Shown here: one piece after another, positions 6,919 through 58,650 of the stretch | Position numbering within the stretch: position 1 is the first letter of the stretch | How the letters are laid out: each line of letters opens with the position of its first letter | Source: a virus | Strand: one strand, 5' to 3' | IMG/VR virus record: IMGVR_UViG_3300043112_000040 | DNA: 64,000 bases | Position numbers and translations under genes: made by a program | Notes under the pieces: model-generated | Databases searched by the model: none | Told to the model about the DNA's origin: nothing | Seen by the model: the letters and a program-made list of their open reading frames with translations, nothing else

Positions 6919-7641
6919 TTATTGATCAACATAATCGGGTTCATGTTTTAGAATATATTCAAGGGCAGTAGACCTATACATATATTTATCAAAACCATAT
7001 TTTATCTCGGCACTTCGTCTGGCCTTTGCAGCTTCTAATTTGGTTATATATCCACCTAAGTAATACACTTTTCTATCTACCATTATTCTAGCACAATATT
7101 TAAGATTTTTGGACTGTGTGTGATTAACTCCGGTGATTCCTGTTGTGGAGTTTGATTGTAGCCCAATATTTATAGCATTACCCTGCTGAGAAATTACTCT
7201 AAGATTTTCTATTCTATTATCACTTTTAATACCATTAATATGATCTAAGTTCTTTTCTGGAAACTCATCATATACATATGCCCATATCAATCTATGAACT
7301 TTATACCACCTACCTTTATATAACAATACAATATACCCATCTTTATCTGAACTGCCTACCATCTTTCCAGCAATATTTTTATTTAAACAAGTTTCTTTCC
7401 AGTATAATATACCAGAAGAGTAATCATAATTAAATAAACTTTTTATATCTTCGCACGTAAGTGGATTTTCAGTATTTAATTTAACTAGGCGTTCTTCCTC
7501 ATAACATTTTTTACATCTAGGACGTTTCCCATTCACTCCTAATCTATGTTGGCTAAATTCGTCCCATAGTTTATATTCACCACATTTATTACATACTCTT
7601 CCTAACTCATCATAGTAATATCCATTTCTATTATAACTCAT
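6919..7641 (-). CDS. HNH homing endonuclease (N-terminal Zn finger, HNH_3, AP2-like C-terminus); cassette 1
   Basis: MSYN...CNKCG...EF...RCKKC, then HRLIW...LDHINGIKSDNRIENLR and YLGGY...AAKARR. Confidence 0.85.
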   Translation of the reverse strand: MSYNRNGYYYDELGRVCNKCGEYKLWDEFSQHRLGVNGKRPRCKKCYEEERLVKLNTENPLTCEDIKSLFNYDYSSGILYWKETCLNKNIAGKMVGSSDKDGYIVLLYKGRWYKVHRLIWAYVYDEFPEKNLDHINGIKSDNRIENLRVISQQGNAINIGLQSNSTTGITGVNHTQSKNLKYCARIMVDRKVYYLGGYITKLEAAKARRSAEIKYGFDKYMYRSTALEYILKHEPDYVDQ

Positions 7642-7670
7642 ATCAATAATTCCTTTACCAACACCATCAA

Positions 7671-7877
7671 TCAATTCTGATCTTCTGCAAACCTTTCATA
7701 AAGAGATTTAGTTTCCTGTTCCAATTGCATGAATTTTTGAACAACCCCAAAAGAGAGGTCATTCACATCACTATAAATCCACGCTGTAATTGTTTGGCGG
7801 GATTTACCAAAAATATCCACCAACATCGGTTGACGAAGATATTTATGAATAAATGGTGTTGAATCTTTAAGTGTCAT
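7671..7877 (-). CDS. Small HTH protein (cassette family A)
   Basis: QPMLVDIFGKSRQTITAW HTH-like segment; paralog of 20392 and 57524; GGAG RBS. Confidence 0.75.
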   Translation of the reverse strand: MTLKDSTPFIHKYLRQPMLVDIFGKSRQTITAWIYSDVNDLSFGVVQKFMQLEQETKSLYERFAEDQN

Positions 7878-7900
7878 AGTGTTCTCCATATGATGACGAG

Positions 7901-7929
7901 AGTATAACATTATTAAACCAGTTTGTCAA
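7901..7929 (-). promoter_or_regulatory. sigma70 promoter of cassette 1
   Basis: TTGACA-N17-TATACT. Confidence 0.75.
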
Positions 7930-7953
7930 GTCTTTTTTACTGGTTTGTTGAAT

Positions 7954-9234
7954 TTATTTCTTGTCCTTAATGTATTTACTAAGAAATTCAGCAACACAAC
8001 CTTCTTCCTTATCAAACACAAATCCGGTTGCCATACGATTCCCTTTAACATATCCTTTTTGAGTATGCCAGAAATCGCTTGCGGTAAGAGAAGGAAGAAC
8101 TTTAACCTCGACTCCATTAAAGGTGTCACCATCTGTATATTTAGTAACACGCTTCTTATGAAGGTGTCCAATATGCCACTGCATGAAGTCTACCTTGGCC
8201 CAATCCTCCTGCGCCTCTCTTGCCATAAGTAGTGGTAATTTATCATGTTTTTCTTGGTCCCCATGTGAAAACCCGATTAGTGTCTTACCATATCGGTAAT
8301 ACTTACGAGGAGTAGGATCATTATTTACATTAACGTGTTTGTCATTCCTATACCATGCAGATAAATATTCTCCAAGATAAAAACCTACCGTTCTATCATG
8401 GTTTGACTGCACAACAATAACATCCACATCCGCACATTTCCGCAATAAGTCAATAGTTTGAACAAGAATCCTACTCGCTGTAGTATATAACTTAGTCCAC
8501 CTACTATCGGTATCCTGCCGAGTTCCGCTTGTTGTCTCTGGAATAGCACCATCATATTGAAGAAAATCCTGACCTACTGGAAAAAGAATCTTTTCAATAT
8601 TAAGGTGGCTGGCCTTTGCAAGTAAATCATAGATTGCCTCCATAAATAATTCTTCCGCAATCTTTAGATCATATGATTCTCCTGTTTCCGCAGCATAGCA
8701 AAGTTTACCCAGGTGCATGTCGAATAAAGCAATCTCATACATAACAGGCTTTTTCTTTGAATCATTCTTTCGGACAATGGGAGTATACTTATTCTTCTCC
8801 CCCATCATCTTATATTGTTCCTTAATAATATCCAGTGTAATATCAGGAACCATCTTCTTGAAAACAATCTTGGTCTGCTCATTGACAAAGGGAACAACTT
8901 CCCCATCTTCATTCTTGAAAGGAGTTGTCCATTCATTCTGAGAAATAGATTGAATTGCCCAGAACCGCTTATCTAGGTTATACTTTTCAAACAGTTCATC
9001 TTCTGTTTCATATTTATCAGAAGTGTAGGCAGTAAGATTATTCTCAGTTTCAACTACTTTGTCTTTTTGTTTCTTGTTCTGCGTATCTGCTTTTTCAATA
9101 TATGTATTTAGTTTATTATAATACGAATCGATAACCCTACGAACAGAAGTTCTTGGAAGTCCTAGCTCTCTCGCTGTTCCGGCCTTGGTTCCAATCTTTT
9201 TATATGTTTCAATGATTTTATTTTTTAGGTTCAT
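7954..9234 (-). CDS. Metallophosphoesterase with N-terminal HTH
   Basis: N-terminal TARELGLPRTSVRR; DMHLG, GQD, SNHD, SHGD and GHLH motifs. Confidence 0.8.
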   Translation of the reverse strand: MNLKNKIIETYKKIGTKAGTARELGLPRTSVRRVIDSYYNKLNTYIEKADTQNKKQKDKVVETENNLTAYTSDKYETEDELFEKYNLDKRFWAIQSISQNEWTTPFKNEDGEVVPFVNEQTKIVFKKMVPDITLDIIKEQYKMMGEKNKYTPIVRKNDSKKKPVMYEIALFDMHLGKLCYAAETGESYDLKIAEELFMEAIYDLLAKASHLNIEKILFPVGQDFLQYDGAIPETTSGTRQDTDSRWTKLYTTASRILVQTIDLLRKCADVDVIVVQSNHDRTVGFYLGEYLSAWYRNDKHVNVNNDPTPRKYYRYGKTLIGFSHGDQEKHDKLPLLMAREAQEDWAKVDFMQWHIGHLHKKRVTKYTDGDTFNGVEVKVLPSLTASDFWHTQKGYVKGNRMATGFVFDKEEGCVAEFLSKYIKDKK

Positions 9235-9238
9235 AATT

Positions 9239-10438: not shown

Positions 10439-10447
10439 ATAATCACA

Positions 10448-10657: not shown

Positions 10658-10674
10658 AATTTATGTCCTTAATG

Positions 10675-19444: not shown

Positions 19445-20350
19445 TTATTTCTTTAAGTATTTATCCAAAGCCCATTCTGGAACTTCGTTTAAGTCAATTC
19501 CTTTTTCTTGCAGTTCTTTAATCATTTCTTGTGAGGCTTTTCTTAGTTCTGGTAAAGTACAGCCTGATATTGAATGTGCCTTTTTATCATGTTCTTCACA
19601 CAACGTAAATGCTCCGTCCATATCATTCTCAAACATCTTGCAAGTAGCAAAGGGATCGCTGTGATGTACTGTTAAATTATCTGTTGACCCGCAGATGACA
19701 CATTGATGGTTGTCCCTTTCTAGGACCATATTGCGGAAATCAGCAGGGAAAGATCGTTTTATGGTGTTTGGAGATATAACTCCTTTAGGATGTACTGTTT
19801 GATTATATGTCGGACATAATTCTTTGCACTTCTCTGAACAATATATTTTAGATTCTCCTGCTTGCTTACCATTAAGCGCATTTATTCTATTCCGTACTTG
19901 TTGATTTGTTGGAATAAAATACTTGTTACATAAAGCACACCTAACTTCTAAATATCCAGTATCTGTTTCTCTAGCATCTTCTTCAATTGTTAATTTGGGC
20001 CCATATGTTTTATATAATGCCTGTAGATTTAAGTAATATCTTCCATATTCCCGGCGACTTTCTATAGTTTTTTCTTTATTATCTAAATAATACTGTTTTT
20101 TATATTCAGATATCTCTGTTTTTTTAATTATACGATATTCTTTTTGTTTTTTGATTCTATTTTCCGTATCTGATAAATATATTTTTTTATTATATAAACT
20201 GCGGCATCTATTACAGTGGGCATGCCTTCCAAATACTCCCCCTTTCTTTTTATTAAATTCCCAATAGTATCGGAACCATCCACACTTTGTACATTCTTTC
20301 CCTCCCCATTCTCCTTCTACATAATAAATTTTTTTCCTATTATATGGCAT
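19445..20350 (-). CDS. HNH endonuclease, cassette 2 (type A nuclease domain)
   Basis: MPYN...EWGGKECTKCGWFR Zn finger, YCSEKC, RDNHQCVICG...VHH. Confidence 0.85.
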   Translation of the reverse strand: MPYNRKKIYYVEGEWGGKECTKCGWFRYYWEFNKKKGGVFGRHAHCNRCRSLYNKKIYLSDTENRIKKQKEYRIIKKTEISEYKKQYYLDNKEKTIESRREYGRYYLNLQALYKTYGPKLTIEEDARETDTGYLEVRCALCNKYFIPTNQQVRNRINALNGKQAGESKIYCSEKCKELCPTYNQTVHPKGVISPNTIKRSFPADFRNMVLERDNHQCVICGSTDNLTVHHSDPFATCKMFENDMDGAFTLCEEHDKKAHSISGCTLPELRKASQEMIKELQEKGIDLNEVPEWALDKYLKK

Positions 20351-20391: not shown

Positions 20392-20598
20392 TTACTTATT
20401 ATTTTCTCTAAACTCTTCGCACATGGATTTAAGTTGTGCCTCTAGCTTCATAAAATCTGATACTGTCTTATAAGAAAGATTGTCGAGTTTAGCATTTTGC
20501 CACGCCGAAATAGTTTGCCTTGTTCTATTAAACATAAAAGCAAGGGCGGCTTGAGTAAGATAGTTTTTTATTGTTGGCGTTGCCTCGTTTAAAGTCAT
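20392..20598 (-). CDS. Small HTH protein (cassette family A)
   Basis: QAALAFMFNRTRQTISAW; paralog of 7671 and 57524. Confidence 0.75.
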   Translation of the reverse strand: MTLNEATPTIKNYLTQAALAFMFNRTRQTISAWQNAKLDNLSYKTVSDFMKLEAQLKSMCEEFRENNK

Positions 20599-20621: not shown

Positions 20622-20650
20622 ATTATAACAAAATCAAATACAAATGTCAA
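20622..20650 (-). promoter_or_regulatory. sigma70 promoter of cassette 2
   Basis: TTGACA-N17-TATAAT. Confidence 0.8.
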
Positions 20651-20674
20651 GTCTTTTTTTTATTATTTGTAAAA

Positions 20675-27583: not shown

Positions 27584-28121
27584 TATACATTTGATATTTG
27601 TTATAGAAATCCTCAGTTGTTCCCCTGCCCAAATGAGTGTTATAGTATTTCTTCCACACCCAAGCCAACTCCCACGGTTCGTTCTTTATTCTATACAATC
27701 TATTTCCAAGTTTGTCAACATAATAAATCAAGGCCAAAAGTGCTTGAAACTCAACTATACTTTGTAGTTGTTTTGAATTATAATAACTAACATACTTATC
27801 GTAAACTCGCTTAAACACTTTCATCTTAGGCTTAAATAAAACTCTGTTAACAATGTCTTTCTTTGTATGTTTATTAATCTGAAACAATCCCCTATCATGT
27901 AACTGATTGCCAAAATTTCTGCCGAGGTCCGTTTCAACTGCTGCCGTTCCTAATAGCAAGTTTACAAGGGTTTGATTCTGATTTGGGTCAATTTGTGTTT
28001 GCACCATAACAGAATGGACCGCTCTTGTCAACACTTTTATATCAATCGGCTCGTTAGGAGGATGATAAGTTGCTGGCAAGAGGATAGTTGTTGTTAAGAA
28101 TAGGGATATTAGTGTGTTCAC
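27567..28121 (-). CDS. Lysozyme/transglycosylase-like protein with N-terminal signal peptide
   Basis: Hydrophobic N-terminus; LLGTAAVET...GLFQI resembles the lysozyme-fold catalytic Glu and GxxQ motif. Confidence 0.55.
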   Translation of the reverse strand: MNTLISLFLTTTILLPATYHPPNEPIDIKVLTRAVHSVMVQTQIDPNQNQTLVNLLLGTAAVETDLGRNFGNQLHDRGLFQINKHTKKDIVNRVLFKPKMKVFKRVYDKYVSYYNSKQLQSIVEFQALLALIYYVDKLGNRLYRIKNEPWELAWVWKKYYNTHLGRGTTEDFYNKYQMYIEGEG

Positions 28122-29714
28122 TTATCCTCTCCTTCTTCCACTCTTGTTATTACCATTCTTCAAATCATTTCTAGCCTTTACAATCTTTGCTTTATCATCA
28201 TGCTCAACAAAATAACTGTCATGGCAGAAGGTTCCGTGGTCAAGGCACTGATATAGATATGCAAATTCTGTTTTCTTATAACCCCCGAAACGATCTGCAA
28301 GTTTGCGAAATCTCACCACCCCATATGCGTTTAATTCAGGAGTAGTATCAATAGCAACCATATTTGTAACTGTGTTAAAAATTGCTTTAGCCTCAGACAC
28401 ATGAACGGGTGTCAACTCCATGTCTGTCATACCAGAAGCATTAGCATGAAGCGGAGAAATAATAGCAATATTATATTCATCTGCCATTCTTTTTGCCGTG
28501 TTCCACTCATCAATGATAGCCAATCGTTGCTCTTTATTACCTGTTAACTTATGAGCATTAACATAATCATCAACAATCAAAGATATATCAATGCCTTCCA
28601 CATTTCGTAGATGATCCATAGTGGCCTGAACATCTCGGAAATTAGCAGAGAATTGAGGATATGCAGCAATATGTAACCTATTTCCCCCTTCATATTTAAG
28701 CCACTTCTTGAGCCTCCGTTTAGCGTATTCAGGAGTCAGAATAGGACGATATACTCCTTCTGTATGAAAGTCAATTTGAAAAGTAGAACCTCCATCCTTA
28801 CAAGCAGAACAAGGTTTATAGTCTGGATTTACCTCTTCCTGCCCAACCCTGCCAATTAAATAAGCCTCTTTGTTGGTTCTTTGGGCAAGACGGCATTGGT
28901 TTAGCTTGTTTAGTTTACAGTCAAGTTGAGCATATTCCCCCATAGTACCAGATTCTTTATATGGTCTACGAGTAAGCATATGAATGATACGTTCTCTAAC
29001 CTCAACTTCATTCATCTCATGCGACGATACCAATGTGTGATAGCCTCTTTTGACAGCCTCTAGTGCGAGTTCCAAGGCACAAAAAGATTTACCTCCCTTA
29101 CCAGTAGCAAGGATAGCATGAACGCCGCTTCTGCGGATTGGTCCCATTATCCCACCAATAATTCCGGGATAAGTGAATAATTCATATGATTCCCTGTTGA
29201 AAACACCATCAACAACAGAATCAACGTCTGTCATGTCTCCAATAAAAGAAGTTTCCTTAGCAACAGTATTATAACTAAGCAGGGACCGTTCTGCCTCGTC
29301 AACCCTGCCAAGTTTTATATTGTTACTAATATTTTCAGCAATTGTTTTTAGACTGTTCTTTTTTATATATTCAAGGGTTTTATCGGTCCAATACTTACTA
29401 TTAAAAGAATTATTATTTTCTTCATCACTATCACTGTCTAAAGATAGATTCAATAGTAATGCTTCAATAAGAGTTTTTTCATCTTCATCCAAATGCTCGG
29501 ATTCTGTATTATATGTCTGAGTAATTAAATCATTTATTGGTTTATTATACTTGTTAAAATGCTCAATCGCCCATTTAGCAACCTTTTGAGCAAAAGAAGC
29601 TGACAAAATAGTTGGATTAAGAATCTTGCAAATATTATTACAGTAATCCTGATCAGTAATTAGTCCGATCAGGATTTTTTTCTCAATTTCATTATTTACT
29701 TGTGATACTGGCAT
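28122..29714 (-). CDS. dnaB: DnaB-like replicative helicase
   Basis: Walker A ATGKGGKS, SHEM, IVDDY, SPLHAN, VSEAK. Confidence 0.85.
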   Translation of the reverse strand: MPVSQVNNEIEKKILIGLITDQDYCNNICKILNPTILSASFAQKVAKWAIEHFNKYNKPINDLITQTYNTESEHLDEDEKTLIEALLLNLSLDSDSDEENNNSFNSKYWTDKTLEYIKKNSLKTIAENISNNIKLGRVDEAERSLLSYNTVAKETSFIGDMTDVDSVVDGVFNRESYELFTYPGIIGGIMGPIRRSGVHAILATGKGGKSFCALELALEAVKRGYHTLVSSHEMNEVEVRERIIHMLTRRPYKESGTMGEYAQLDCKLNKLNQCRLAQRTNKEAYLIGRVGQEEVNPDYKPCSACKDGGSTFQIDFHTEGVYRPILTPEYAKRRLKKWLKYEGGNRLHIAAYPQFSANFRDVQATMDHLRNVEGIDISLIVDDYVNAHKLTGNKEQRLAIIDEWNTAKRMADEYNIAIISPLHANASGMTDMELTPVHVSEAKAIFNTVTNMVAIDTTPELNAYGVVRFRKLADRFGGYKKTEFAYLYQCLDHGTFCHDSYFVEHDDKAKIVKARNDLKNGNNKSGRRRG

Positions 29715-32456: not shown

Positions 32457-34589
32457 TTATTTACTCAAAACCATGTCCCAAATCTTATCAGAAAACAAAT
32501 GTCCTCTCGATAAAACAACCTTCTCTTCCTTGTTCATCTCCACAACCTTATTATAAATGTCCTGAATAACATCACATAACATATTATAAGGAACCTCGTC
32601 AACATCATTCTCAAAATCAAGATATTCATTAACATCCATCCCAATCCAGTCAATCCACTTGTCACAAATAATATTCCAGTCAGACCAACCAAAAGGCAAT
32701 CCACTCACAGAATCCACAATATGCTCTTTATAATAACAAAACCATGTGAAGTAGAACGCTTTAGATTTAACCCCAACTTTCAAAGAACTCTCGTCAAATT
32801 TACCAGTGCTAAAAAATTCATTATACAAGGGAAGCAACCAATTTGGCATTTCCTCATACTCAATATTATATTTTTCCTTGTACTCGGTCTTAGGATCATT
32901 CTTCAAGTTACCTATCTTCCTTGGTTCTTTCATAAATTGAATGAAAAGACTTTTGTTGGAAAGGGTGACATCAAAGAAGAACTTAGACAATGTGCGGCGG
33001 TTCTCAATCCAGTTTTTATGCAAGGGTTCATATTCAGGATCGAAGGCCAGCTTGAAATTGTCAAACACCTTTTTGATCTCCGCCACAGAATAGGGACGAT
33101 TATATTGATCCATTCCATCAAGGTTACAAAAAAACTCATTGGCTTGAATCTTTCGGAAAACCTTAAGAGCTTCCTTGAAAGTTTTTGTGTCTGGTTTGTG
33201 AGCAGGAAATCCAAGTTCAACCCAATAATCATAAATCTGCATGAAGTCGGGTTCAGCCTCCCTCAATTTGCGTAACTGCTCGTGATACTTGAGTTTGTTT
33301 GATTCTGCCCTGTTTTTTGCGGTAGATTTGTTATTTTTTTTGCTAAACATTTCCATATCTTGCAACTCCGTTTGGTATTGTATTGATATTTTTTCCTCGG
33401 ATTTCGCATTTTGGGTGCTTTGGGCTACCCTAGGTCGATTTTTGTCGTAGGATGCGTTCTCTGTCTCTGTGGCTTCTACTATTGGGTCTAAACGAGCATG
33501 TGCGTGTTGGGGTAGGGAAGGGGTTTCCTCCATATAGATATTCTCATAATCAACATCCCACCCAAACTCATACTCGGAACCAGCACATTTGTCAAGAATT
33601 TCGGCGGGGGCGGGCGCGGCATTATACTCACTATTTAGATTATTAGACAGAGGAAGAAATGTAAGATTTGAAATAGAGCAAGGATTCTTAGTTCTATTTA
33701 TTCTTTTATTCTTTTTATACTTTAATCCTTCCTTTTTATCGTTAGTTAAAATATTAGTAGAAGAATTTAAACAAGAGGAACTCTTGCTTGTATTCTTTAC
33801 TTGATATTTATTCCAATCAACGAGACAAGGACTCTTCTTTTCTTCCTCTTCTGAATTTATAAAGATATTTTCAACAGCAACAAAATCCTCCGGTGAGTGA
33901 AACGAAACCGGGGGTTTTGTCATATTCGTTAGAATATTTTTTTCTTTTAAATCTTTTCTTTTAAGAGTATATTCTTTTAAGGGTAAAGAAATTTGCCCCG
34001 GGGGGGTTAAAAAATTTGCCCCGGGGGGGTAAAGAATTTTAACGGGGGGTACTTCATAAATATCCTTATAGGGGGGGTTAAATTTCTTTACTAGGGGGGG
34101 TAAATAAATTTGCCCCGGGTCATTTGTATTACCCGCTGATTTATTTGAATTTTTCACTTTCTTGCTAAATGTTTTTCGTGTTTTTACTATCTCAGGGCAG
34201 ATCGCGTCCATATTCTTTTTTGTGGTAGGAATCCCCTCACTAGATAACTTTTTCCACGCTAATTTGTCTTCTTCAATTAAAAGATCAAGTAAAGTCACAT
34301 TTACCTTGTAATAGGCTTTTTCAAATCCTTTTTTGCCTTTCAGTTTTTTTTCTACAATTCCACAATTAACCAGTTTATTAATTATATTTGTAATTGTAGG
34401 TTTAGAAATCCGAAGATTATATTCAAAATCTTTTATGGTTACATATACCCATTTCTCTGCCGGGTTGTTACTAGTAATGCTTACCCATTTGTTGAGTATA
34501 AATCCAAAAACAATGCTAGCATTTGGATTCTCAAATAATCTAAATGTTGTGTGATAAATCTTTAGAAAGATTCCGTCTGGTGATTTCAT
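32457..34589 (-). CDS. Putative replication initiator (N-terminal winged HTH, internal iterons)
   Basis: ISKPTITNIINKLVNCGIVEKK wHTH, followed by a Pro-rich repeat-encoded linker as in lambda O-type initiators. Confidence 0.6.
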   Translation of the reverse strand: MKSPDGIFLKIYHTTFRLFENPNASIVFGFILNKWVSITSNNPAEKWVYVTIKDFEYNLRISKPTITNIINKLVNCGIVEKKLKGKKGFEKAYYKVNVTLLDLLIEEDKLAWKKLSSEGIPTTKKNMDAICPEIVKTRKTFSKKVKNSNKSAGNTNDPGQIYLPPLVKKFNPPYKDIYEVPPVKILYPPGANFLTPPGQISLPLKEYTLKRKDLKEKNILTNMTKPPVSFHSPEDFVAVENIFINSEEEEKKSPCLVDWNKYQVKNTSKSSSCLNSSTNILTNDKKEGLKYKKNKRINRTKNPCSISNLTFLPLSNNLNSEYNAAPAPAEILDKCAGSEYEFGWDVDYENIYMEETPSLPQHAHARLDPIVEATETENASYDKNRPRVAQSTQNAKSEEKISIQYQTELQDMEMFSKKNNKSTAKNRAESNKLKYHEQLRKLREAEPDFMQIYDYWVELGFPAHKPDTKTFKEALKVFRKIQANEFFCNLDGMDQYNRPYSVAEIKKVFDNFKLAFDPEYEPLHKNWIENRRTLSKFFFDVTLSNKSLFIQFMKEPRKIGNLKNDPKTEYKEKYNIEYEEMPNWLLPLYNEFFSTGKFDESSLKVGVKSKAFYFTWFCYYKEHIVDSVSGLPFGWSDWNIICDKWIDWIGMDVNEYLDFENDVDEVPYNMLCDVIQDIYNKVVEMNKEEKVVLSRGHLFSDKIWDMVLSK
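33989..34120. repeat. Iteron-like repeats (putative replication origin)
   Basis: AAATTTGCCCCGGG three times, and G6-7T tracts at ~34000, 34023, 34044, 34071 and 34094, flanked by AT-rich DNA. Confidence 0.7.
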
Positions 34590-35476
34590 TTTAAACTCTC
34601 TTGTATGTTATTGTTTGTTTCCATATATTTCTCAACTGCCCAATCAGGGATTTCATGAGGGTCAATTCCCTTATCATCTAAATCTTGCTTGATTCTTTGA
34701 GAACAGGAGGCTAGTTCCTGTAACCCGCAACCCGGTAATTTGTGAACTTTCTTGTGACACTTCTTACATAGTGTAATTCCATTATCCACATCATTACTGA
34801 GCATTGGATGAGTTGAGCCGGGATAAATATGATGTGCCTGTAAGCGGTGGGTTCCCCCGCAGATTTGGCATTTATAGTTATCTCTTTTAAAGATTTCATC
34901 CCTTACGAAAGCAGGAAATTCTGTGCCATTGGGCTTTGTTTTGAATCCTTTTGGGTATTTCCTTTGTCTATATAGAGAACATTCGTGTTTACATTTCTCT
35001 GAACAATATAAACGAGACTCTCCATTTATTTGCCCTTTTAATGCCTGTATTCTACTTTGTATTTGTTGATTTGTTGGAATAAAATATTCTCTGCACTCAG
35101 AATTAGCACATTTAACTTCTAAAAATCCTTCAACTGTTTCTCTTGGCTGTTCTTCTATTGTTAGTTGATTGCTATATATATTGAATAGTGCAGGAGACTC
35201 TTTATATTCTTTTTGATATTCTTTTTTATCTAAATTATATTCTTTTTGATATTTTAGTTTATCTTCTCTATGATCTAAATAATATTTTTTATGTATATCT
35301 TCTCGTTTCTCCACGTAATATTTCTTAGTACATTCCCTACATCTATTTTGATATCCTTTAAATCCTTTTTTATTTATATTAAATTCCCACCAATTTCTAA
35401 ACCAACCACATTTAATGCAGACTTTTCCTCCCCACTCTCCTTCAATAAAATATGTTTTGTGTTTATTATATGACAT
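34586..35476 (-). CDS. HNH endonuclease, cassette 3 (type B nuclease domain)
   Basis: MSYN...EWGGKVCIKCGWFR; RDNYKCQICG...AHHIYP...NGITLCKKCHKKVH. Confidence 0.88.
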   Translation of the reverse strand: MSYNKHKTYFIEGEWGGKVCIKCGWFRNWWEFNINKKGFKGYQNRCRECTKKYYVEKREDIHKKYYLDHREDKLKYQKEYNLDKKEYQKEYKESPALFNIYSNQLTIEEQPRETVEGFLEVKCANSECREYFIPTNQQIQSRIQALKGQINGESRLYCSEKCKHECSLYRQRKYPKGFKTKPNGTEFPAFVRDEIFKRDNYKCQICGGTHRLQAHHIYPGSTHPMLSNDVDNGITLCKKCHKKVHKLPGCGLQELASCSQRIKQDLDDKGIDPHEIPDWAVEKYMETNNNIQESLK

Positions 35477-35478
35477 AC

Positions 35479-35691
35479 TTATTCATCCTTTTTTAAATCA
35501 TTATCTTCTTTTAGTCGCTCAACCCATACTGTATTTGTGCGACCATTCCTATATCCGCTGTTATTAGGTTTATTCTCGTCATTCCATGTTGTAGCCCTAC
35601 ACTTCGGGCATGTTTTTGGCAGTTCTTGCTTCCTTTTAATCCAAGTATAATTACAACGGAAGCATTTTAAAACGTAAGTGTCAGTATTCAT
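35479..35691 (-). CDS. Small Zn-ribbon protein (cassette family B)
   Basis: CFRCNYTW...PKTCPKCRATTW; AAGGAG RBS. Confidence 0.75.
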   Translation of the reverse strand: MNTDTYVLKCFRCNYTWIKRKQELPKTCPKCRATTWNDENKPNNSGYRNGRTNTVWVERLKEDNDLKKDE

Positions 35692-35716
35692 ATAGTTCTC
35701 CTTTAATGTAGAAGTG

Positions 35717-35745
35717 ATTATAACAAGATTAATCCCAAAAGTCAA
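35717..35745 (-). promoter_or_regulatory. sigma70 promoter of cassette 3
   Basis: TTGACT-N17-TATAAT; 27/29 identical to the promoter at 41346. Confidence 0.8.
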
Positions 35746-35787
35746 GCATTATTTTCACTTTTATCAAAAATAATTTATAAGTTGTTG

Positions 35788-38660: not shown

Positions 38661-39563
38661 TCAAGAAAAAACTTCACTTCTAATCTCATCAACTTTCTCC
38701 AAACCACATTCCCCTACATCCTTCATAACATCATCTTTATCCCAAATAAAAATATTAGTTTGAACACCTAACAAAGAAATCTTATTAGCAACATTCTCAG
38801 CCTGTACCTTACCGGGACCATCATTGTCAAACAAAACTGTCACCTTCTCAACTCCTTGCCTTTTCAGAAATGCTATTTGCTTATTTGTGACTTCAACTCC
38901 CATGGTAGCAATTGCCCCACTTCCAAACGTCCAGCGGTCCATTAAACCTTCCACAAGAACGGCATGAGAACCAACCTCGTCAATACCATACAAGCACTGA
39001 GCGGCAGGAATAAGAGAATCCTCGGCGGCGGCGTTTTTGTAGCGTATTTTTTCCTGCTTATATATTGTTCTGCCAACATAAGACGCAAGGATATTGTTCA
39101 TATAAATAGGAATAATAATTCTATACGCCCAATGAGGATTTAGATTTGTGAATGATTTCAGATCATAGCGAGTTTCTAAGTATTCTGGATCAAATCCTCT
39201 TTGTTTAAGATACTGCTTGTGTGGATTTTCCAAGTGATTAATCATGCCCATTGGGAATTTGAATGTTCCTTTTATTTGTTGGTGTTGGTAAGGTGTGAAA
39301 TCTTTTTTAGAATTTTTATATTCCTTGTAGACTTCTTTTATTGGTGCAGAGGATTGTTCTTTTACGTATTCATAAATGTTTGATTTAAAAGAACATACCC
39401 AACAGTGTGTAACTCCGGTGATTGTGTTTACACCATAGCAATTCCACGCCCTGCCACAAGAAGGACAAACAGGAAGACCAAGCCATCCTTTACCAACATT
39501 TTGTGATCCAGATTCTTGGTATGGAATATTGAATTTGTCAAGAAATGATCTGACGTTAATCAT
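38661..39563 (-). CDS. dnaG: DNA primase (DnaG-like; Zn finger plus TOPRIM)
   Basis: CPSC...HCWVC, VLVEGLMD and LFDND motifs. Confidence 0.88.
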   Translation of the reverse strand: MINVRSFLDKFNIPYQESGSQNVGKGWLGLPVCPSCGRAWNCYGVNTITGVTHCWVCSFKSNIYEYVKEQSSAPIKEVYKEYKNSKKDFTPYQHQQIKGTFKFPMGMINHLENPHKQYLKQRGFDPEYLETRYDLKSFTNLNPHWAYRIIIPIYMNNILASYVGRTIYKQEKIRYKNAAAEDSLIPAAQCLYGIDEVGSHAVLVEGLMDRWTFGSGAIATMGVEVTNKQIAFLKRQGVEKVTVLFDNDGPGKVQAENVANKISLLGVQTNIFIWDKDDVMKDVGECGLEKVDEIRSEVFS

Positions 39564-40162
39564 TATGTAATCCTTCTGGCAACTCTTGTTTTCTCATTAA
39601 CCAATCCAAGAATATAAGTATCTAAACTATCTGGTATATAATATACTTTTATAAGACATTCTTCTGCTTGTCCTACTCTATGGATTCTGTCTTCTGCTTG
39701 AGACATAACAATGGCTTCCCAATGGATTTCAGCTTGCAGCATAACATGAGATTTTGTCAGTGTCAAGCCCTCTTTACCTGCCCCATAACTAAGTATAATA
39801 ACTGGTCTTTTTCCAACTTGAAAACCTTTTACTGCTTTATCTCTTTCCTTAATATTTGTCTGACCTGTTATTACATAACAATCATTTCCGAAGTGCTTTT
39901 TATACTCTTTGACTACTTGATGGTGTTCAACGAATAAAACAACAGATTTATTTTCTTTAATATATAATTTTGCATCATTAATAACAGTGGGAACCTTTAG
40001 GAGTCCTAGGTCAATACGCAATCTAGCAATGGATTTGTCTGCTCGTAGTTTTGGTGGAATTTGATTTAACTTATTAAAAGAAGATAGACGAGTCAAGAAT
40101 TTTTTATTATCTTGCTTTATCTTTTCTTTATCAATTGTATTTTGGAAGAATGATTTATTCAT
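39563..40162 (-). CDS. SNF2-family helicase, C-terminal (HELICc) half
   Basis: VVLFVEH, ITGQT, GKEGLTLT and QAEDRIHRVGQ motifs. Confidence 0.88.
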   Translation of the reverse strand: MNKSFFQNTIDKEKIKQDNKKFLTRLSSFNKLNQIPPKLRADKSIARLRIDLGLLKVPTVINDAKLYIKENKSVVLFVEHHQVVKEYKKHFGNDCYVITGQTNIKERDKAVKGFQVGKRPVIILSYGAGKEGLTLTKSHVMLQAEIHWEAIVMSQAEDRIHRVGQAEECLIKVYYIPDSLDTYILGLVNEKTRVARRIT

Positions 40163-41120
40163 TTAGACTATATTCATTATTATTTGGTTTCATATATTTC
40201 TCAACTGCCCAATCAGGGATTTCGTGAGGATCAATTCCCTTATCATCCAAGTCTTGCTTAATCCTTTGTGAACAGGCAGCAATTTCATGCAAACCACAAC
40301 CGGGAAGTTTGTGAACTTTCTTATGACACTTCTTACATAACGTGATTCCGTTATCAACGTCATTACTAAGCATTGGATGAGTTGAGCCGGGATAAATGTG
40401 ATGTGCCTGTAAGCGGTGGGTTTCCCCGCAGATTTGGCACTTGTAGTTATCTCTTTCTAGGATTTTGTCTCTTATAAATTTGGGGAACTCTGTGCCAGTA
40501 GGTTTTGTTTTAAAACCTTTTGGATATTTTTGTTGTCTATATAATGAGCACTCTTGTTTGCATTTTTCTGAGCAATAAAGGCGAAGTTCTCCCATACCCC
40601 CATTTAGTGCTTTTATTCTATTTTGAACTTGTAGATTTGTTGGTATAAAATAATCCCTGCACGCTGAATTAGCACACTTAACTTCTAAATATCCATTTTC
40701 TGTTTCTCTTGGTTGTTCTTCTATAGTTAATTGATGACCAAATGTACTAAATAATGCAGGAGCTATTGCATATTCTTTTTTCTGTTCTAATAGATCATCT
40801 CGTTTTTCTATATAATATTCTTTTTGTTTGTTTATTATAGCATCTCGCTTTTCCATATAACGTTTTTTTCGGTATTTTAATCTATCTTCTCTATGATCTA
40901 TATGATATTCTTTTTTTTGTTCTAGAATATCATCTCGTTTCTCTATATAATATTCTTTGTGATATTTTTGATCACATTTTCTACATCTTGGTCGTATCCC
41001 CTTAAAACAAGCTTTTTGATTACTAAATTCCCACCAGTGTCTGAACCAACCACATTCAGTGCATATTTTTCCTCCCCATTCCCCATCAATATAATAAACT
41101 TTTCTTTTGTTATATGGCAT
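40155..41120 (-). CDS. HNH endonuclease, cassette 4 (type B), inserted between the SNF2 halves
   Basis: Near-identical C-terminal domain to 34586..35476. Confidence 0.88.
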   Translation of the reverse strand: MPYNKRKVYYIDGEWGGKICTECGWFRHWWEFSNQKACFKGIRPRCRKCDQKYHKEYYIEKRDDILEQKKEYHIDHREDRLKYRKKRYMEKRDAIINKQKEYYIEKRDDLLEQKKEYAIAPALFSTFGHQLTIEEQPRETENGYLEVKCANSACRDYFIPTNLQVQNRIKALNGGMGELRLYCSEKCKQECSLYRQQKYPKGFKTKPTGTEFPKFIRDKILERDNYKCQICGETHRLQAHHIYPGSTHPMLSNDVDNGITLCKKCHKKVHKLPGCGLHEIAACSQRIKQDLDDKGIDPHEIPDWAVEKYMKPNNNEYSLNE

Positions 41121-41125
41121 CTCTA

Positions 41126-41320
41126 TTAATCCTTTTCTTTAGATTGTTGTCGAATTTCGTGGACGGATGTTTTATTTCCATCTTTAAGTCCCATTCTGTT
41201 TTCCCTTGGTTTCCACCATATTTTAGATTTACAACGTGGACATATTTTAATATCTTTGTTGCGCGGGAACCATTCATAAGAACACCTTTGGCATATAAGA
41301 CCTTTAAGTGAATGTTTCAT
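41126..41320 (-). CDS. Small Zn-ribbon protein (cassette family B)
   Basis: CQRCSYEW...KICPRCKSKIWW; paralog of 35479. Confidence 0.75.
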   Translation of the reverse strand: MKHSLKGLICQRCSYEWFPRNKDIKICPRCKSKIWWKPRENRMGLKDGNKTSVHEIRQQSKEKD

Positions 41321-41345
41321 TCTACTAACCTCCTAGGTAAGTTGT

Positions 41346-41374
41346 ATTATAACAAGATTAATTCAAAAAGTCAA
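41346..41374 (-). promoter_or_regulatory. sigma70 promoter of cassette 4
   Basis: TTGACT-N17-TATAAT. Confidence 0.8.
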
Positions 41375-41482
41375 GTGTTATTTTGATTTATACTAAATGT
41401 TTTTTAATATTCGTATTTAAGTACCTAAAATTACTGACTTAAAATTTTCTTACTCGGAACTGAGATACTATATATGTATATA

Positions 41483-42604
41483 TTATATATTAACAGATAT
41501 GTATTCTACAGTCTTCTTCGGTAATTGTTCCAGCACTTGCCCTTTCTTGCGTCTAATATAGTAGTGCATCCTGAGTATTCGTCTCAACAATCTCTGATTA
41601 CTAAATCCTGTTGAGTCATAGCCATATTCTGTCTTAACTCGATTACAAAAAACATCCTCATAAAGAACTTTATCCTGCCAAACAAAATCAGGGTCTATCA
41701 GATAAAGCAAGAATCGCAAGTCCCTAATGTAGTTCTTAATTGCTGTTCCTGTCAACAACAAAGTAAACTTACTATTATGACAAATATCTTTTAATGTCCT
41801 TGCCCTCTTGCTGTTGTTGTTTGATATGTTATGGGCCTCGTCAACAATAACAAGATCAGGTCCAAATTGCAAGATGTTCTTCTTCTGCTTCGCTAAATTA
41901 TTAAAGTTGCAAATCAAAATTTCTGCCCCGTCGAGGTCCGAGGGTTTGGAATTTGCTGTTAATATATTCACTTGGGGGTTTGCGCGTGTGCCTTTATAGA
42001 ACTCTTGTTGCCAATTTTTTAAAAGACTGTTAGGTGTAACTACAATTGCTCGTGTCAAGTGTTTTTTTGGGTTTTTCTCAAAATATTTTACAAGTCCATT
42101 TTTGTCATTTGTCTTATTATAAGAAAACTTATTAGTAAATTGACAATCTAGTTTATCTTTATTAAACATGGAAAAGAAAGAATAAACACCAATAGCCTGG
42201 AATGTCTTGCCCAATCCGGCAACATCAGATAGCATACATCCTCTAAACCCCTGTTTATATCGTGTCAGAATCTCTTCTACGCCACTTTTCTGATATGGTA
42301 GGGGGGTCATATCATTTGAACAAGGAAAATCGAAATTAGAGGCAATAGAATCAAAATTTAGGGCATTGGCTTTTAATTCCCTGTAGTGTTCCCTCACATC
42401 TTTATATCGTGGAGATTTGAGCAAAGTAGAGGCAAGGGCAGGATAATACTTGAAAACGGCTTTATAAACCGTTTCCAGGTGAAATATTGGTATAATGTAG
42501 TCCTGATACTGTAGACGATATTGAACACCAAAAAGGGAAACTAGCTCTTTATGTAAAGGACTAATTAACCCTTTTTTTGGTAGGGATAGGGAGAAGGATT
42601 TCAT
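41483..42604 (-). CDS. SNF2-family helicase, N-terminal ATPase half
   Basis: LPYQKSGV, DVAGLGKT, IVDEAH, LLTGT, RRKKGQVLEQLPKK. Confidence 0.9.
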   Translation of the reverse strand: MKSFSLSLPKKGLISPLHKELVSLFGVQYRLQYQDYIIPIFHLETVYKAVFKYYPALASTLLKSPRYKDVREHYRELKANALNFDSIASNFDFPCSNDMTPLPYQKSGVEEILTRYKQGFRGCMLSDVAGLGKTFQAIGVYSFFSMFNKDKLDCQFTNKFSYNKTNDKNGLVKYFEKNPKKHLTRAIVVTPNSLLKNWQQEFYKGTRANPQVNILTANSKPSDLDGAEILICNFNNLAKQKKNILQFGPDLVIVDEAHNISNNNSKRARTLKDICHNSKFTLLLTGTAIKNYIRDLRFLLYLIDPDFVWQDKVLYEDVFCNRVKTEYGYDSTGFSNQRLLRRILRMHYYIRRKKGQVLEQLPKKTVEYISVNI

Positions 42605-54791: not shown

Positions 54792-55296
54792 TGATAAAAG
54801 AAAATATGAAACCCCTGTTATCCCCAAATTAAAACACACAGAGATTGCAAATCGTGATGTGTCTGTTTTGTTTTGGGAAGCAACCCATAAGTGTGACGAG
54901 AAATGTCCTGTATATGAGGAGTGTCCCTATGCAGGAGATTCTTTGAAGTGTGATTTATGTTACAGATTTCTTAACAATATTAAAGAAGCGACTATTCAGG
55001 CTCTTGGCGAAAAGCAAGTGAATGAGTTTCAGAAACACATGCTTGGAACCGGAGTTTTTTCTTTATGGAATCAGTTCTTGCAATTCGAGATTATCAGAAT
55101 TTCACTTGGTATGGATGAATTATTCTCACAAACAAGAAGTGGGGCAAAAGTTCATCCTGTATTTGCAGAACAACGAAAAGTGTTTGATGCTATTCGTAAA
55201 TTATATGAATCAGTGTTTGGTAAAGAAAACGCAGTCAATTTTTTGGATAAGACTGTGGATGTTAACGAATTTGAAAAAGCCCTGAGAGGCGAGTAA
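54745..55296 (+). CDS. Putative terminase small subunit
   Basis: Position two genes upstream of TerL; helical, with a KVHP motif; inference only. Confidence 0.4.
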   Translation: MILSLLKTTRTMIVSDDKRKYETPVIPKLKHTEIANRDVSVLFWEATHKCDEKCPVYEECPYAGDSLKCDLCYRFLNNIKEATIQALGEKQVNEFQKHMLGTGVFSLWNQFLQFEIIRISLGMDELFSQTRSGAKVHPVFAEQRKVFDAIRKLYESVFGKENAVNFLDKTVDVNEFEKALRGE

Positions 55297-55301
55297 ATGT
55301 A

Positions 55302-55484
55302 ATGGAAGAATACTATTCAGAATTAGTGGAAATCTATATTGATAAGCTGAATGAGGCTTTTCAAATGGAGGGTTATCCACGACAAATTACAATGGAAAAT
55401 GAGAATGGAGATGTTCTCTGTTATGTGTTGGATGAAGAATATCTTGAAAATCAAAGTTATTTAGAAGATGACAAAGAAGACTAG
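55302..55484 (+). CDS. Small acidic protein
   Basis: ORF overlapping the TerL start. Confidence 0.5.
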   Translation: MEEYYSELVEIYIDKLNEAFQMEGYPRQITMENENGDVLCYVLDEEYLENQSYLEDDKED

Positions 55485-57444
55485 AACTCCTAAAGCAACA
55501 ATTACTGCCGAAGAATATATAAAACAAAGGGATTTCCTTGTTAGCAATTTGGAGTCAGGTAATCTGCCGGAAGAAGAGTTTAACAAGAAGATTCAGGTTT
55601 TATATGCAAAGAGACTTCCAGTATATAGAAATGGTGGGGATGGGTTTATTGCATGGGCTGAAGAGAATGTTTGTGTAGATGCCTATATACCTGGAACTTC
55701 TATCAAAAAGCCTACATATCTATCTGACCTATCGAGAGAGCCTGAACCGGAAACGGGAAAGACTTGGTGGGATTTATGGTGCTGGCAACGCAGTGAAATA
55801 AAAAAAGCACTGGTACTGCGAGAAGACGGACGCTTAAAGCATAACTTAGTTGTATTTTGCACGGAGCGCGGAGAGGGCAAATCATTTATGGCCGTGCTTA
55901 TTGTGTTATGGAAGTTCTGTTGTCTTGCTGGTCAACGTATATTTCTTGCTGCTAACTCTAAAGAACAATCCTCCTTTGCTCATCGAGAGGAGATTGATAA
56001 GATTGTTCGTATCAGTCCTGTATTATTAGGATTGATTGGCGGTGAAAAGGCAATTAAGCAAAGAGAACTCGCCATTTATGATAGCAAGGGTAGGAAGATC
56101 AGTTTTATCACGACTGTTTCTACATTCACAGGTGTTTTATCCAATGCAACGGGTTTCACGTTTTCGGAGTTCTTTGCATCGCCGCCAGATGGTCGATTTT
56201 TTTCTGAAATTTATGGTTCAATGCGTAATACTCCTAATGCTTTGGGAGTTATTGACTCCACTGTGTCTACAAGGGACCACCGACTTTATAGAATTTATGA
56301 AAACATACAAAAGGGACTGCCGGGAACAGAAACACAATACTTCTTATTTAAATCAAATCCGGGGGCTAAAATCGAGAATTATTATTCCCCTGCCAATACT
56401 CAATCACAACTAGATGCTTTTAGAACTACCTTTACACCGGGGGAGTTCCAGATGTTTTTTGAGAACACCTGGGATTCAGCTACATCCGGTCTTTTTAGTG
56501 ATACGGATATTGAAATTGCAGATGTGCTTGGTATGAACGGTGCAATGCTGAACCACGAAGAAATTAAAGAAGTGGTAGAAGCATGTAAGCAAAAAGAAAG
56601 TATTCCAGATAGAATCCAAGGAAGTGACATGGGCGTAACTGCTGATTATGAAGCAATTGCAGAAATGAAACGGCCCTTTGTTCCTGTAAGTAGATATTTA
56701 TCTAATATTGATGAACATAATTTTTATATTCCAACAGAAGAGTTAGAAGAACTTGGAAACATATTAGATACAGATTGGTGTATTGGTATAGGAGTAGATA
56801 GAGCAGATACTATTAAGACTACTACTGGCGCACAGTCAGCGTTGGTATGTGTGGCAAAAGGTCTTCCCGGTAGTAGAAGTAATCCATATCTTTATCTTGT
56901 TGATGGAGGGGAAGGTAAATCTCCTGACTACATTTATATTCCTGTTGGCGTATATGTGACGGACTTCGGAGCTGCTAACGAAATACAGGCTATCATTCAA
57001 GAATGGCATAGTCAGTATAATGGGATTGAGGGGTTTGCGGCAGACAAATTTGGTATGCAGGATCTTCCCGGCTGGTTGATTGAACAAGAATTAATTGATA
57101 AACCAGAAGTGCTACAGTTTTCTTATAATGTTCAAAGGGCTGTTATGATGATGCTGTTTAATGCTCTAAAAAGAGGTAGATTCAAAAAGCCAAATATTAA
57201 TATTCCGGGTGTTAGGGGAAGTGATATTTTAGTAGAACAAATGAAGCACTATGTTCATCGCAGTGTTAATGGAACTAGATTTGAGTTTTCCTCCGATGAA
57301 AAAGGAAAGAAAGGCGGGGTACAGGATGATACCTTAGAAGCATTGGCCCTTGCTATTTATTCTGTTCGTATGAAAGGGCTAGATAGTTTTAAAAGTATTA
57401 GGGCTAAATCATTTTTCGGAGAGTATGTTCCTCCTTCAAATTAG
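55468..57444 (+). CDS. terL: Terminase large subunit
   Basis: Walker A ERGEGKS, AANSKEQ, RNase H-like IGVDRA, DKFG and QDD motifs; upstream of the portal. Confidence 0.85.
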   Translation: MTKKTRTPKATITAEEYIKQRDFLVSNLESGNLPEEEFNKKIQVLYAKRLPVYRNGGDGFIAWAEENVCVDAYIPGTSIKKPTYLSDLSREPEPETGKTWWDLWCWQRSEIKKALVLREDGRLKHNLVVFCTERGEGKSFMAVLIVLWKFCCLAGQRIFLAANSKEQSSFAHREEIDKIVRISPVLLGLIGGEKAIKQRELAIYDSKGRKISFITTVSTFTGVLSNATGFTFSEFFASPPDGRFFSEIYGSMRNTPNALGVIDSTVSTRDHRLYRIYENIQKGLPGTETQYFLFKSNPGAKIENYYSPANTQSQLDAFRTTFTPGEFQMFFENTWDSATSGLFSDTDIEIADVLGMNGAMLNHEEIKEVVEACKQKESIPDRIQGSDMGVTADYEAIAEMKRPFVPVSRYLSNIDEHNFYIPTEELEELGNILDTDWCIGIGVDRADTIKTTTGAQSALVCVAKGLPGSRSNPYLYLVDGGEGKSPDYIYIPVGVYVTDFGAANEIQAIIQEWHSQYNGIEGFAADKFGMQDLPGWLIEQELIDKPEVLQFSYNVQRAVMMMLFNALKRGRFKKPNINIPGVRGSDILVEQMKHYVHRSVNGTRFEFSSDEKGKKGGVQDDTLEALALAIYSVRMKGLDSFKSIRAKSFFGEYVPPSN

Positions 57445-57467
57445 TTTCATAGAACATCAAAAAAGAC

Positions 57468-57496
57468 TTGACAAATCATTATCATTCTGCTATAAT
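57468..57496 (+). promoter_or_regulatory. sigma70 promoter of cassette 5
   Basis: TTGACA-N17-TATAAT. Confidence 0.8.
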
Positions 57497-57523
57497 AATT
57501 ATTAACACTAAGGAGAAGACTAC

Positions 57524-57727
57524 ATGCTACTAAAAGAAACAATACCAACCATTCGTAAGTATATCACGCAGGAATTTCTTTCTGATGTATTTGGGTGTAG
57601 TCGCGTAACGATTTCCCGCTGGTATAATTCTGATCTTAATGCCCTTTCCTACAAAACTGTTTCTGAGGTTCAAAAACTAGAACAGTCATTGAAGGAGTTT
57701 TATAAGAATTTTAAGGATCAGATTTAG
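57524..57727 (+). CDS. Small HTH protein (cassette family A)
   Basis: QEFLSDVFGCSRVTISRW; LSYKTVS shared with 20392. Confidence 0.78.
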   Translation: MLLKETIPTIRKYITQEFLSDVFGCSRVTISRWYNSDLNALSYKTVSEVQKLEQSLKEFYKNFKDQI

Positions 57728-57759
57728 GTTTGTGTTGGTATTGTTATAGGAATTTTGTT

Positions 57760-58650
57760 ATGCCTTATAATCATATGGATATTTACTATGTTGAAGGAGA
57801 GTGGGGAGGCAGAGAGTGTATTTGTTGTGGTTGGTTTAGGAACTGGTGGGAGTTTAATAAAAATAAACAAGGATTTAAAGGGCATCAAAATAAGTGTAAA
57901 AATTGTTGTAATAAATATCGCAAAAAACACTACGTGGAGAAACGAGAACATATTTTACAACAGCAAAAAGGATATCGCTTAGATAACCGAGAAGATATAT
58001 TAGAGCAGAAAAAAGAACATGCAGCGTCTTTTGCATTATTTAATACATATGGATATCAACTGACAATAGAAGAAGATGCAAGGGAAACAGTTGAAGGATA
58101 CCTAGAAGTAAAATGCGCCCACTCTGAGTGTAGGAAGTATTTTATTCCGACAAATAAGCAAGTACATAATAGAATACAGGCATTAAATGGAAATATACCA
58201 GGAGAATCTCGTCTTTATTGCTCGGAAAACTGTAAAGAATCATGTTCCCTTTATCAACAACGTAAATATCCAAAAGGATTTAAAAATTCTAACACCATAA
58301 AACGATCTTTCCCTGCCGAGTTTCGTAATATGGTATTAGAAAGAGACAACCATCAATGTGTTATATGCGGTTCAACAGATAATTTAACAGTACATCACAG
58401 CGATCCCTTTGCTACCTGTAAGATGTTTGAGAATGACATGGATGGAGCATTTACCTTATGCGAAGAACATGATAAAAATGCCCATTCAATATCAGGCTGT
58501 ACTTTACCAGAATTAAGAAAAGCCTCACAAGAAATGTTAAAGGAGTTACAGGAAAGAGGAATCAACCTAAATGAAGTCCCTGATTGGGCCATTAACAAAT
58601 ACCTTAAACCCTCCCAACCCCCAACTATAAGAGAAAAACCTAATGATTAA
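57760..58650 (+). CDS. HNH endonuclease, cassette 5 (type A)
   Basis: MPYN start after a TATAGGA RBS; C-terminal domain nearly identical to 19445..20350. Confidence 0.85.
   Translation: MPYNHMDIYYVEGEWGGRECICCGWFRNWWEFNKNKQGFKGHQNKCKNCCNKYRKKHYVEKREHILQQQKGYRLDNREDILEQKKEHAASFALFNTYGYQLTIEEDARETVEGYLEVKCAHSECRKYFIPTNKQVHNRIQALNGNIPGESRLYCSENCKESCSLYQQRKYPKGFKNSNTIKRSFPAEFRNMVLERDNHQCVICGSTDNLTVHHSDPFATCKMFENDMDGAFTLCEEHDKNAHSISGCTLPELRKASQEMLKELQERGINLNEVPDWAINKYLKPSQPPTIREKPND

Follow-up and report, generated by a model that had tools for sequence, protein, structure and literature searches.

Homing endonuclease genes (HEGs) are regarded as selfish elements of a single gene that either borrow their expression from the programme of the phage or squeeze it into that programme. 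Free-standing HEGs of T-even and ICP1-type phages include the mob and seg genes, HNH-AP2 and IPA-HNH genes, and genes with CapR zinc fingers (PMC2988022, PMC10448857). The DNA-binding domain of I-TevI is used for homing and also for the repression of its own promoter, and a cost has been stated for the promoters that invading endonuclease genes import (PMC2988022). In the open-access text searched, a homing cassette composed of a helix-turn-helix (HTH) gene and an HNH gene is not described. Such a unit occurs three times in a stretch of viral DNA of 64,000 nucleotides (nt) (IMG/VR record IMGVR_UViG_3300043112_000040; hereafter the window), where a consensus sigma70 promoter is followed by a small HTH gene and an HNH endonuclease gene. 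We favour, with moderate confidence, the view that the unit is a free-standing HNH homing endonuclease gene equipped with its own sigma70 promoter and a small HTH autoregulator of probable XRE-like fold. The cassette is real and cleanly delimited, with a distribution restricted to a single group of uncultured phages; its mechanism is what we infer from the comparisons below.

A sequence-only reading of the window had placed the unit at three positions, and the open reading frames (ORFs) are found at each of them, as follows. Numbers of the form L002 denote contig loci from related phages.

7901..7930, minus strand: promoter of cassette A1, TTGACA-N17-TATACT with a TG extension and an upstream A-tract.
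7671..7877, minus strand: HTH1, 68 amino acids (aa), an XRE-like helix-turn-helix protein that starts at MTLK and has a GGAG Shine-Dalgarno sequence before it.
6919..7641, minus strand: HNH1, 240 aa, with an N-terminal zinc finger, an HNH_3 nuclease and an AP2-like tail.
20622..20651, minus strand: promoter of cassette A2, matching the consensus at 12/12 positions.
20392..20598, minus strand: HTH2, 68 aa, with 94% aa identity to L003/L004.
19445..20350, minus strand: HNH2, 301 aa, in which a zinc finger and a repeat linker precede a Cys-rich middle domain and a McrA-type HNH domain of variant motif.
57467..57496, plus strand: promoter of cassette A3, matching the consensus at 12/12 positions.
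57524..57727, plus strand: HTH3, 67 aa, with five helices in an AlphaFold2 (AF2) model (predicted local distance difference test score, pLDDT, 95).
57760..58650, plus strand: HNH3, 296 aa, a paralogue of HNH2 (66% identical).

The three copies share a common order. An A-tract, TTGACA, 17 base pairs (bp) with the TG extension, and TATAAT or TATACT are followed ~25 nt later by the HTH gene, with a GGAG Shine-Dalgarno sequence between, and the HNH gene begins 29-41 nt after the HTH stop. The near-consensus promoter seen earlier ahead of each unit is present at all three; the window has 8 matches to CTTGAC-N16-18-TATAMT where 0.05 would be expected, and 5/8 of these matches precede HNH cassettes. 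Each copy also stands directly before the gene that had been named for it. HNH1 ends 11 nt from an sbcD-like phosphoesterase gene (5993-6907), HNH2 ends 16 nt from an MT-A70 methylase gene, and the stop of HNH3 overlaps the start of phoH (58643). The cassette genes have their own starts and their own Shine-Dalgarno sites and are not carried in an intron or intein; Rfam at the gathering threshold returns only two tRNAs in the window and no group I or group II intron.

The spacers between the HTH and HNH genes are alike in the three copies, as had been noticed, with the likeness centred on the Shine-Dalgarno region. The spacer is read in different frames among the copies, so that the likeness is at the DNA level and non-coding. 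Since all three HNH genes are in the +2 frame relative to the HTH gene, a programmed frameshift that would join the two was considered; it is rejected because each HNH gene has its own Shine-Dalgarno sequence and ATG, and because the frame in which the conserved spacer is read varies between copies. No consensus RNA structure was found in the HTH-HNH spacer, which leaves the T4-style model of a sequestered ribosome-binding site unsupported.

The HTH genes are paralogous, in agreement with the sequence-only reading: the proteins, of 67-68 aa, match each other alone in the six-frame translation of the window, at 44-48% identity and with E values of 1e-15 to 1e-18. When the HTH profile was run against 1.84 billion representative proteins, 19 matches came back, among them ~10 small-protein clusters of the HTH type. 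The larger proteins among the matches were rejected as relatives, being generic multi-HTH_3 proteins and not nucleases. Stand-alone members could be placed on 12 contigs that represent 9 non-redundant loci and at least six phage lineages. The placed members are the window's three copies, L002, L005, L006/7, L003/4, L012, L013-15, L016 and L017. L002, L005 and L006/7 are syntenic with A1 and L003/4 with A2, while L012, L013-15, L016 and L017 come from more distant phages. Every placed stand-alone HTH gene is preceded at ~25 nt by TTGACA-N17-TATAAT and followed after 2-41 nt by an HNH gene, the latter gap being just 2-3 nt in L012, L013 and L017; the HTH and HNH genes thus lie behind one promoter at all placed loci. 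The gene-neighbourhood comparison that had been proposed as a check therefore finds all placed stand-alone homologues elsewhere linked to HNH genes.

In the three window copies the HTH and the nuclease are separate genes, whereas in L016/L019 they are in one polypeptide. The L016 protein, of 413 aa, comprises NUMOD4, HNH_3 and a C-terminal HTH of the same family (hhalign probability 97.5%); the fusion frame is also open in L019 and has diverged between the two samples. P0009, a candidate for a solo HTH gene beside RtcB, proved to be the C-terminal part of a fusion ORF that ends at the contig edge. The HTH is accordingly encoded either just ahead of an HNH gene or as part of one. We also note that L016 5001-6447 holds a stand-alone HTH gene followed by the NUMOD4/HNH_3 endonuclease with its paralogous HTH end, so that there are two HTH per unit.

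The reverse dependence does not hold. Intact solo HNH relatives are present in sister phages of ~84 kilobases (kb), and the HTH profile finds nothing in these loci: in L024/25 the gene lies behind a polymerase gene with only a weaker promoter, in L026-28 it lies 1 nt after TerL and before phoH without a promoter, and in L029 it lies behind a capsid gene without a promoter. The HNH gene thus occurs without the consensus promoter and the HTH gene with it; the small gene follows the promoter, and the nuclease does not need the HTH. The earlier suggestion that the HTH is a dedicated partner of the nuclease does not stand in that form against these solo relatives, one of which sits at the same TerL/phoH junction as A3. 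What stands of the earlier interpretation is a recurrent mobile cassette of a promoter and two genes, and what falls is the HTH as a necessary partner of the nuclease.

As judged from alignments with related phages, the promoter and the HTH gene are the best-conserved core of the cassette, and the nuclease part diverges or is swapped. Against L005, nucleotide identity is 93-98% over the promoter and HTH gene, 75-88% over HNH1, ~85% in the upstream gene and 45-65% in sbcD. Such mosaic tracts of identity near the cassettes are an indirect hint that an allele lacking the cassette may be cut at a specific site and that inheritance may be biased. HTH1 has 100% aa identity to its L005 counterpart, with 7 synonymous and 0 non-synonymous changes, and HNH1 shows 59 synonymous and 73 non-synonymous changes. 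Against L003, the promoter and HTH gene are 96-100% identical (92-100% over the promoter, the HTH gene and the first ~100 nt of the HNH gene), while the adjacent 3' end of the polymerase gene is 62-84% identical. Past the zinc finger, the L003 HNH gene is of another lineage, closest to the window's type-B copies. This bears out the suggestion that promoter, HTH and zinc finger move as a module, and the pairing of HTH2 with a type-B nuclease domain in L003 indicates that the partner is not strictly tied to one nuclease subtype. HTH proteins of different loci are 44-48% identical against 94-100% at orthologous loci; the HTH alleles at the A1 locus of different relatives are only 51-54% identical. 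Unitigs from an independent aquatic study span TerL, the promoter and HTH3, and cover the HNH gene patchily.

In L003 (3248-3364) and L004 the HNH gene is out of frame through an A-run that is one base shorter after MPYNKKK, identically in two samples. The loss of frame could reflect decay, slippage-dependent expression or a shared assembly error. The HTH2 orthologue is intact in L003/L004 despite the frameshifted HNH gene.

Variation of the loci among relatives, which the sequence-only reading had proposed to examine, is found for A3, for a cassette at a helicase locus and for B2, one of the sister cassettes described below. These cassettes lie between conserved genes and are present in some relatives and absent from others. 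In L009 phoH follows TerL after 10 nt, and in L008 the portal promoter follows TerL; A3 is missing from each. At the helicase locus it is the window that lacks the cassette.

28121..28122, minus strand: empty site, where the gene for a DnaB-like helicase and the next gene abut in the window.

In L013 and L017 a promoter-HTH-HNH unit stands between the orthologues of these two genes, and in L012 it is found one gene further on. The alignments support gain and loss of the unit as a block, as would be expected of a mobile cassette. The TerL/phoH junction, a hot spot, occurs among relatives in three states: empty (L009 4046-4056), occupied by a solo HNH gene of another lineage (L026 2499-3473), and occupied by promoter-HTH-HNH (window 57444-58650).

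The window is part of an AT-rich genome (35.7% GC) of an uncultured tailed phage, and its full length is covered by sequencing runs of oil-field metagenomes. No RNA run is listed among those that contain it, and two runs labelled metatranscriptomic are flagged as probable DNA. A blastn search of INPHARED with every cassette did not find a close phage, and the HTH profile did not find relatives in metagenome_contigs and genome_contigs.

The AF2 model of HTH3 suggests, at the level of fold, an XRE-like regulator. Its best solved neighbours are Aca7 (Z 6.0), Aca11, C.EcoT38IS (Z 5.0), HipB and C.AhdI; the top neighbours are all lambda-repressor-like domains and small regulators. At Z 5-6, the predicted fold is XRE-like and nearest to the Aca, C-protein and HipB regulators. 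Foldseek comparison of the model with PDB and Swiss-Prot gave nothing better than E ~1. The variable HTH positions map to the recognition helix.

We infer a mechanism in which the HTH protein would bind DNA at an operator and repress, while the HNH protein would act in homing. The promoter, HTH and HNH genes would be co-transcribed, and transcription would continue into the downstream phage genes. The HTH protein would bind inverted repeats overlapping the -35 and -10 elements of the cassette promoter and would cap or stop transcription after an early burst, in the manner of restriction-modification controller (C) proteins and of the Aca repressors in anti-CRISPR operons. Such capping would limit the dose of nuclease, and it would limit the disturbance that read-through from a consensus promoter causes to neighbouring essential genes. 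Candidate operators are visible. In A1 an 8-bp inverted repeat, AAACCAGT/ACTGGTTT, brackets the -35 element, and in A2 a 7-bp repeat, TACAAAT/ATTTGTA, does the same, with the same geometry and a different sequence. In L002 a perfect 14-bp repeat extends from -35 to just past -10. The longest repeats average 7.8 bp, compared with 5.9 in shuffled sequences, and 0/4000 shuffles reach that value. The precedent of T4 supports the autoregulated cassette, since that literature names the promoter cost and I-TevI answers a related problem by autorepression (PMC2988022). Of the three roles that the sequence-only reading had offered for the HTH protein, that of autorepressor appears to fit best; a targeting factor seems possible, and an antitoxin would fit worst.

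Several observations weigh against an autoregulated cassette. Strong promoters without an HTH gene in the same phages also have long repeats (mean 6.9 bp, and 14 bp in L008), so that the enrichment is not specific and is suggestive at most, and no common operator motif is definable from the cassette promoters. The fold comparison indicates a fold class and not a family, as Z 5-6 is common among small helical domains, and every match of the HTH proteins to Pfam HTH families is under the gathering score (HTH_3 at 0.0055). A LAGLIDADG endonuclease gene in the window (487-1194) lies behind a promoter of equal strength and lacks a regulator gene. Finally, the fusion of the HTH to an HNH_3 endonuclease in L016/L019 fits a role as a DNA-binding domain at least as well as a regulatory role.

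That fusion is one argument for the main alternative, a two-component homing endonuclease, in which the HTH protein would be a detachable, locus-specific recognition or tethering subunit for a swappable HNH nuclease. A small HTH subunit that diversifies fast would then supply locus specificity in trans, and interchangeable HNH modules would supply cleavage. The open fusion frame puts an HTH of this family C-terminal to a NUMOD4/HNH_3 endonuclease, which is where I-TevI and I-HmuI-type enzymes carry their DNA-binding HTH. The HTH proteins are also diverged between loci and conserved at orthologous loci, with variable positions in the recognition helix, while the nucleases are homogenised or replaced. 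Should it apply, one phage could run several homing systems that share nuclease domains without cross-targeting. We regard it as possible but unlikely. The intact solo HNH copies, including that at the TerL/phoH junction, suggest that the nuclease functions as a single gene, and the presence of the HTH follows the promoter and not the nuclease type. Moreover, the HTH alleles at the A1 locus differ strongly between relatives, and in L016 a stand-alone HTH gene already lies ahead of the one for the fusion protein.

The architecture of the nucleases also bears on this question. All the HNH proteins have the N-terminal zinc finger M[SP]YN...CxxC...CxxC, so that the M[SP]YN opening and CxxC finger described earlier are true of every one, and each protein carries 1-4 zinc-finger modules. 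Since the HNH proteins have zinc fingers of their own, an extra DNA-binding subunit is not evidently needed; this argues against a recognition subunit in trans and supports an autoregulatory HTH. DUF723/CapR was considered as the identity of the finger and rejected, as Pfam was negative and a weak Stc1 match was the only one. A predicted complex of HTH3 and HNH3 gave a score of 0.00 with controls absent and carries no weight either way.

Two nuclease types behind one HTH family had been proposed, and these are found: HNH1 is of the HNH_3 type (Pfam, 2e-13) and matches I-HmuI (1u3e, E 0.005), and HNH2 and HNH3 are McrA-like. The AP2 label given to HNH1 stands less well, as an AP2-like motif is visible at residues ~170-225 and HNH1 matches PHROG 99, with no Pfam AP2 match at E<=1. 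HNH2 and HNH3 have no Pfam match of their own. PHROGs calls them HNH endonucleases, and the profile of their family matches the GVE2 HNH endonuclease (7.5e-6) and McrA. Their motif is altered, with HH kept, N replaced by G, and CxxC-H replaced by CxxH-D. The HNH family as a whole is broad, with 173 clusters and NUMOD3 or NUMOD4 N-termini in many.

In their nuclease domains, HNH2 and HNH3 share 88-95% nucleotide identity, against only 50-70% in the remainder of the two cassettes, which indicates, at the sequence level, probable recent gene conversion between the two cassettes. The near-identical nuclease DNA lies at 19445-19800 and 58300-58650, in copies that are 37 kb apart and inverted. Between the zinc finger and the middle domain, the linker consists of 'REDILEQKKEYY'-like repeats in varying number (2 to >10 units), seen at window 57900-58050, at L003 3400-3900, and in L026 and L029; metagenome unitigs contain a 154-nt length variant at 57877-58032.

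The count of three copies given earlier is right for cassettes with an HTH gene and incomplete for the family, because two more paralogous HNH cassettes of the window have a zinc-ribbon leader in place of the HTH gene.

34586..35746, minus strand: sister cassette B1, with a promoter, a zinc-ribbon gene (35479-35691) and HNH4 (34586-35476).
40155..41375, minus strand: sister cassette B2, with a promoter, a zinc-ribbon gene (41126-41320) and HNH5 (40155-41120).

The leader is a protein of 64-70 aa with CxxC...CPxC, and the promoter is of the same type as in A1-A3. In L020/L021 and L022/L023 the leader and promoter occur without an HNH gene, directly before a gene like that of a winged HTH initiator (L020 4001-5081, L022 872-2029). 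The zinc-ribbon leader thus keeps its promoter without the nuclease; the promoter-leader module outlives it. B2 sits between the two halves of an SNF2 helicase gene and is absent as a unit from L020. In L020 (1-845; compared at window 39563-42604), without the cassette, the helicase gene is still two ORFs, the N-half and Helicase_C, 62 nt apart, so that the split is not simply the result of the present insertion. Upstream of the LAGLIDADG gene, two tandem consensus promoters are present at 1195-1486 on the minus strand; after the first of them comes a strong hairpin and no ORF, which could mean a small RNA or an attenuator.

The leaders without HNH suggest a further alternative, in which the promoter and small gene are resident in this phage group as an operon leader and HNH genes land or survive downstream of it for the sake of expression. 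The similarity of the A-type promoter to the phage's own portal promoter points in the same direction, as does the intact HTH gene beside the frameshifted HNH gene in L003/L004. We think this distinctly improbable as an account of the HTH cassettes. No gene of the HTH family without HNH was found among the placed loci, three paralogous copies stand at unrelated loci in one genome, and the three parts are jointly present or absent at the TerL/phoH, helicase and SNF2 loci. Loss of HNH from a fixed cassette is, in addition, the expected decay of a homing element.

An antitoxin-like inhibitor, which would neutralise the HNH nuclease (and repress its own promoter) and thereby shield the phage that carries it or render the cassette addictive, is very unlikely. 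The gene order and the tight coupling of 2-3 nt in L012, L013 and L017 resemble type II toxin-antitoxin operons, and HipB and HigA are among the structural neighbours of the HTH model. HNH homologues nevertheless occur without the HTH in L024, L026 and L029, where a toxin would always be accompanied by its antitoxin, and in L016/L019 the HTH is fused in cis to the nuclease. HEG-bearing genomes are normally immune, moreover, as insertion removes the homing target. Least probable of all is that the HTH hitch-hikes in service of a phage function unrelated to the nuclease, for instance the early control of genes of the host or of competitors. The HTH is under strong purifying selection and the promoter is of an early type, which agrees with such a role, but the strict adjacency to HNH across divergent lineages and the fusion are left unexplained by it.

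On the favoured reading of an autoregulated homing cassette, the family would consist of HEGs that carry a consensus promoter and a dedicated small DNA-binding protein, with a promoter-regulator part that outlasts the nuclease. Selfish nucleases could then import a self-limiting expression switch, as restriction-modification and anti-CRISPR operons do, and the cassettes could be taken over by the phage as promoters of essential genes (sbcD, methylase, phoH and head genes). With its three diverged HTH/promoter pairs, this one genome would also provide a natural compact set for studying the orthogonality of small repressors.

The comparison with known systems places the cassette between several of them. 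As in enzymes of the I-TevI and I-HmuI type, an HTH module is tied to a homing nuclease, and the L016/L019 fusion has the same architecture. This is in contrast to the window copies, where a gene of its own, located upstream, encodes the HTH, which is not of the NUMOD1 type by Pfam.

With the systems of C.AhdI, C.EcoT38IS and C.Esp1396I the cassette shares the placement of a small HTH gene, here of predicted XRE-like fold, immediately ahead of the gene for an endonuclease. Alignment of the HTH model with the C proteins gives Z 4.2-5.0, and inverted repeats are likewise present at the promoter. The HTH proteins differ from C proteins in lacking sequence membership, a recognisable C-box and a methylase partner, and the nuclease is of the homing-type HNH class in an operon of a lytic phage.

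The combination of a mobile phage cassette, a very strong promoter and a tiny HTH gene recalls Aca1, Aca7 and Aca11, among which are the best structural neighbours of the model (Z 6.0 and 5.1). In Aca systems the HTH protein represses the promoter of the cassette and spares the neighbouring genes. In the present cassettes, unlike those of Aca, the HTH gene comes first, the cargo is a nuclease and not an anti-CRISPR, and a sequence relationship is lacking.

The free-standing HEGs of T-even and ICP1-type phages share several features with the cassette. In both, HNH genes are inserted between conserved genes of essential function (polymerase, terminase, helicase, sbcD), some relatives have them and others lack them, identity is mosaic at the insertion, a host gene can be split, and the build is the modular "beads on a string" with repeated zinc fingers. 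Those HEGs are single genes; the cassette differs in having a small HTH gene of its own and a consensus promoter, both better conserved than the nuclease they accompany.

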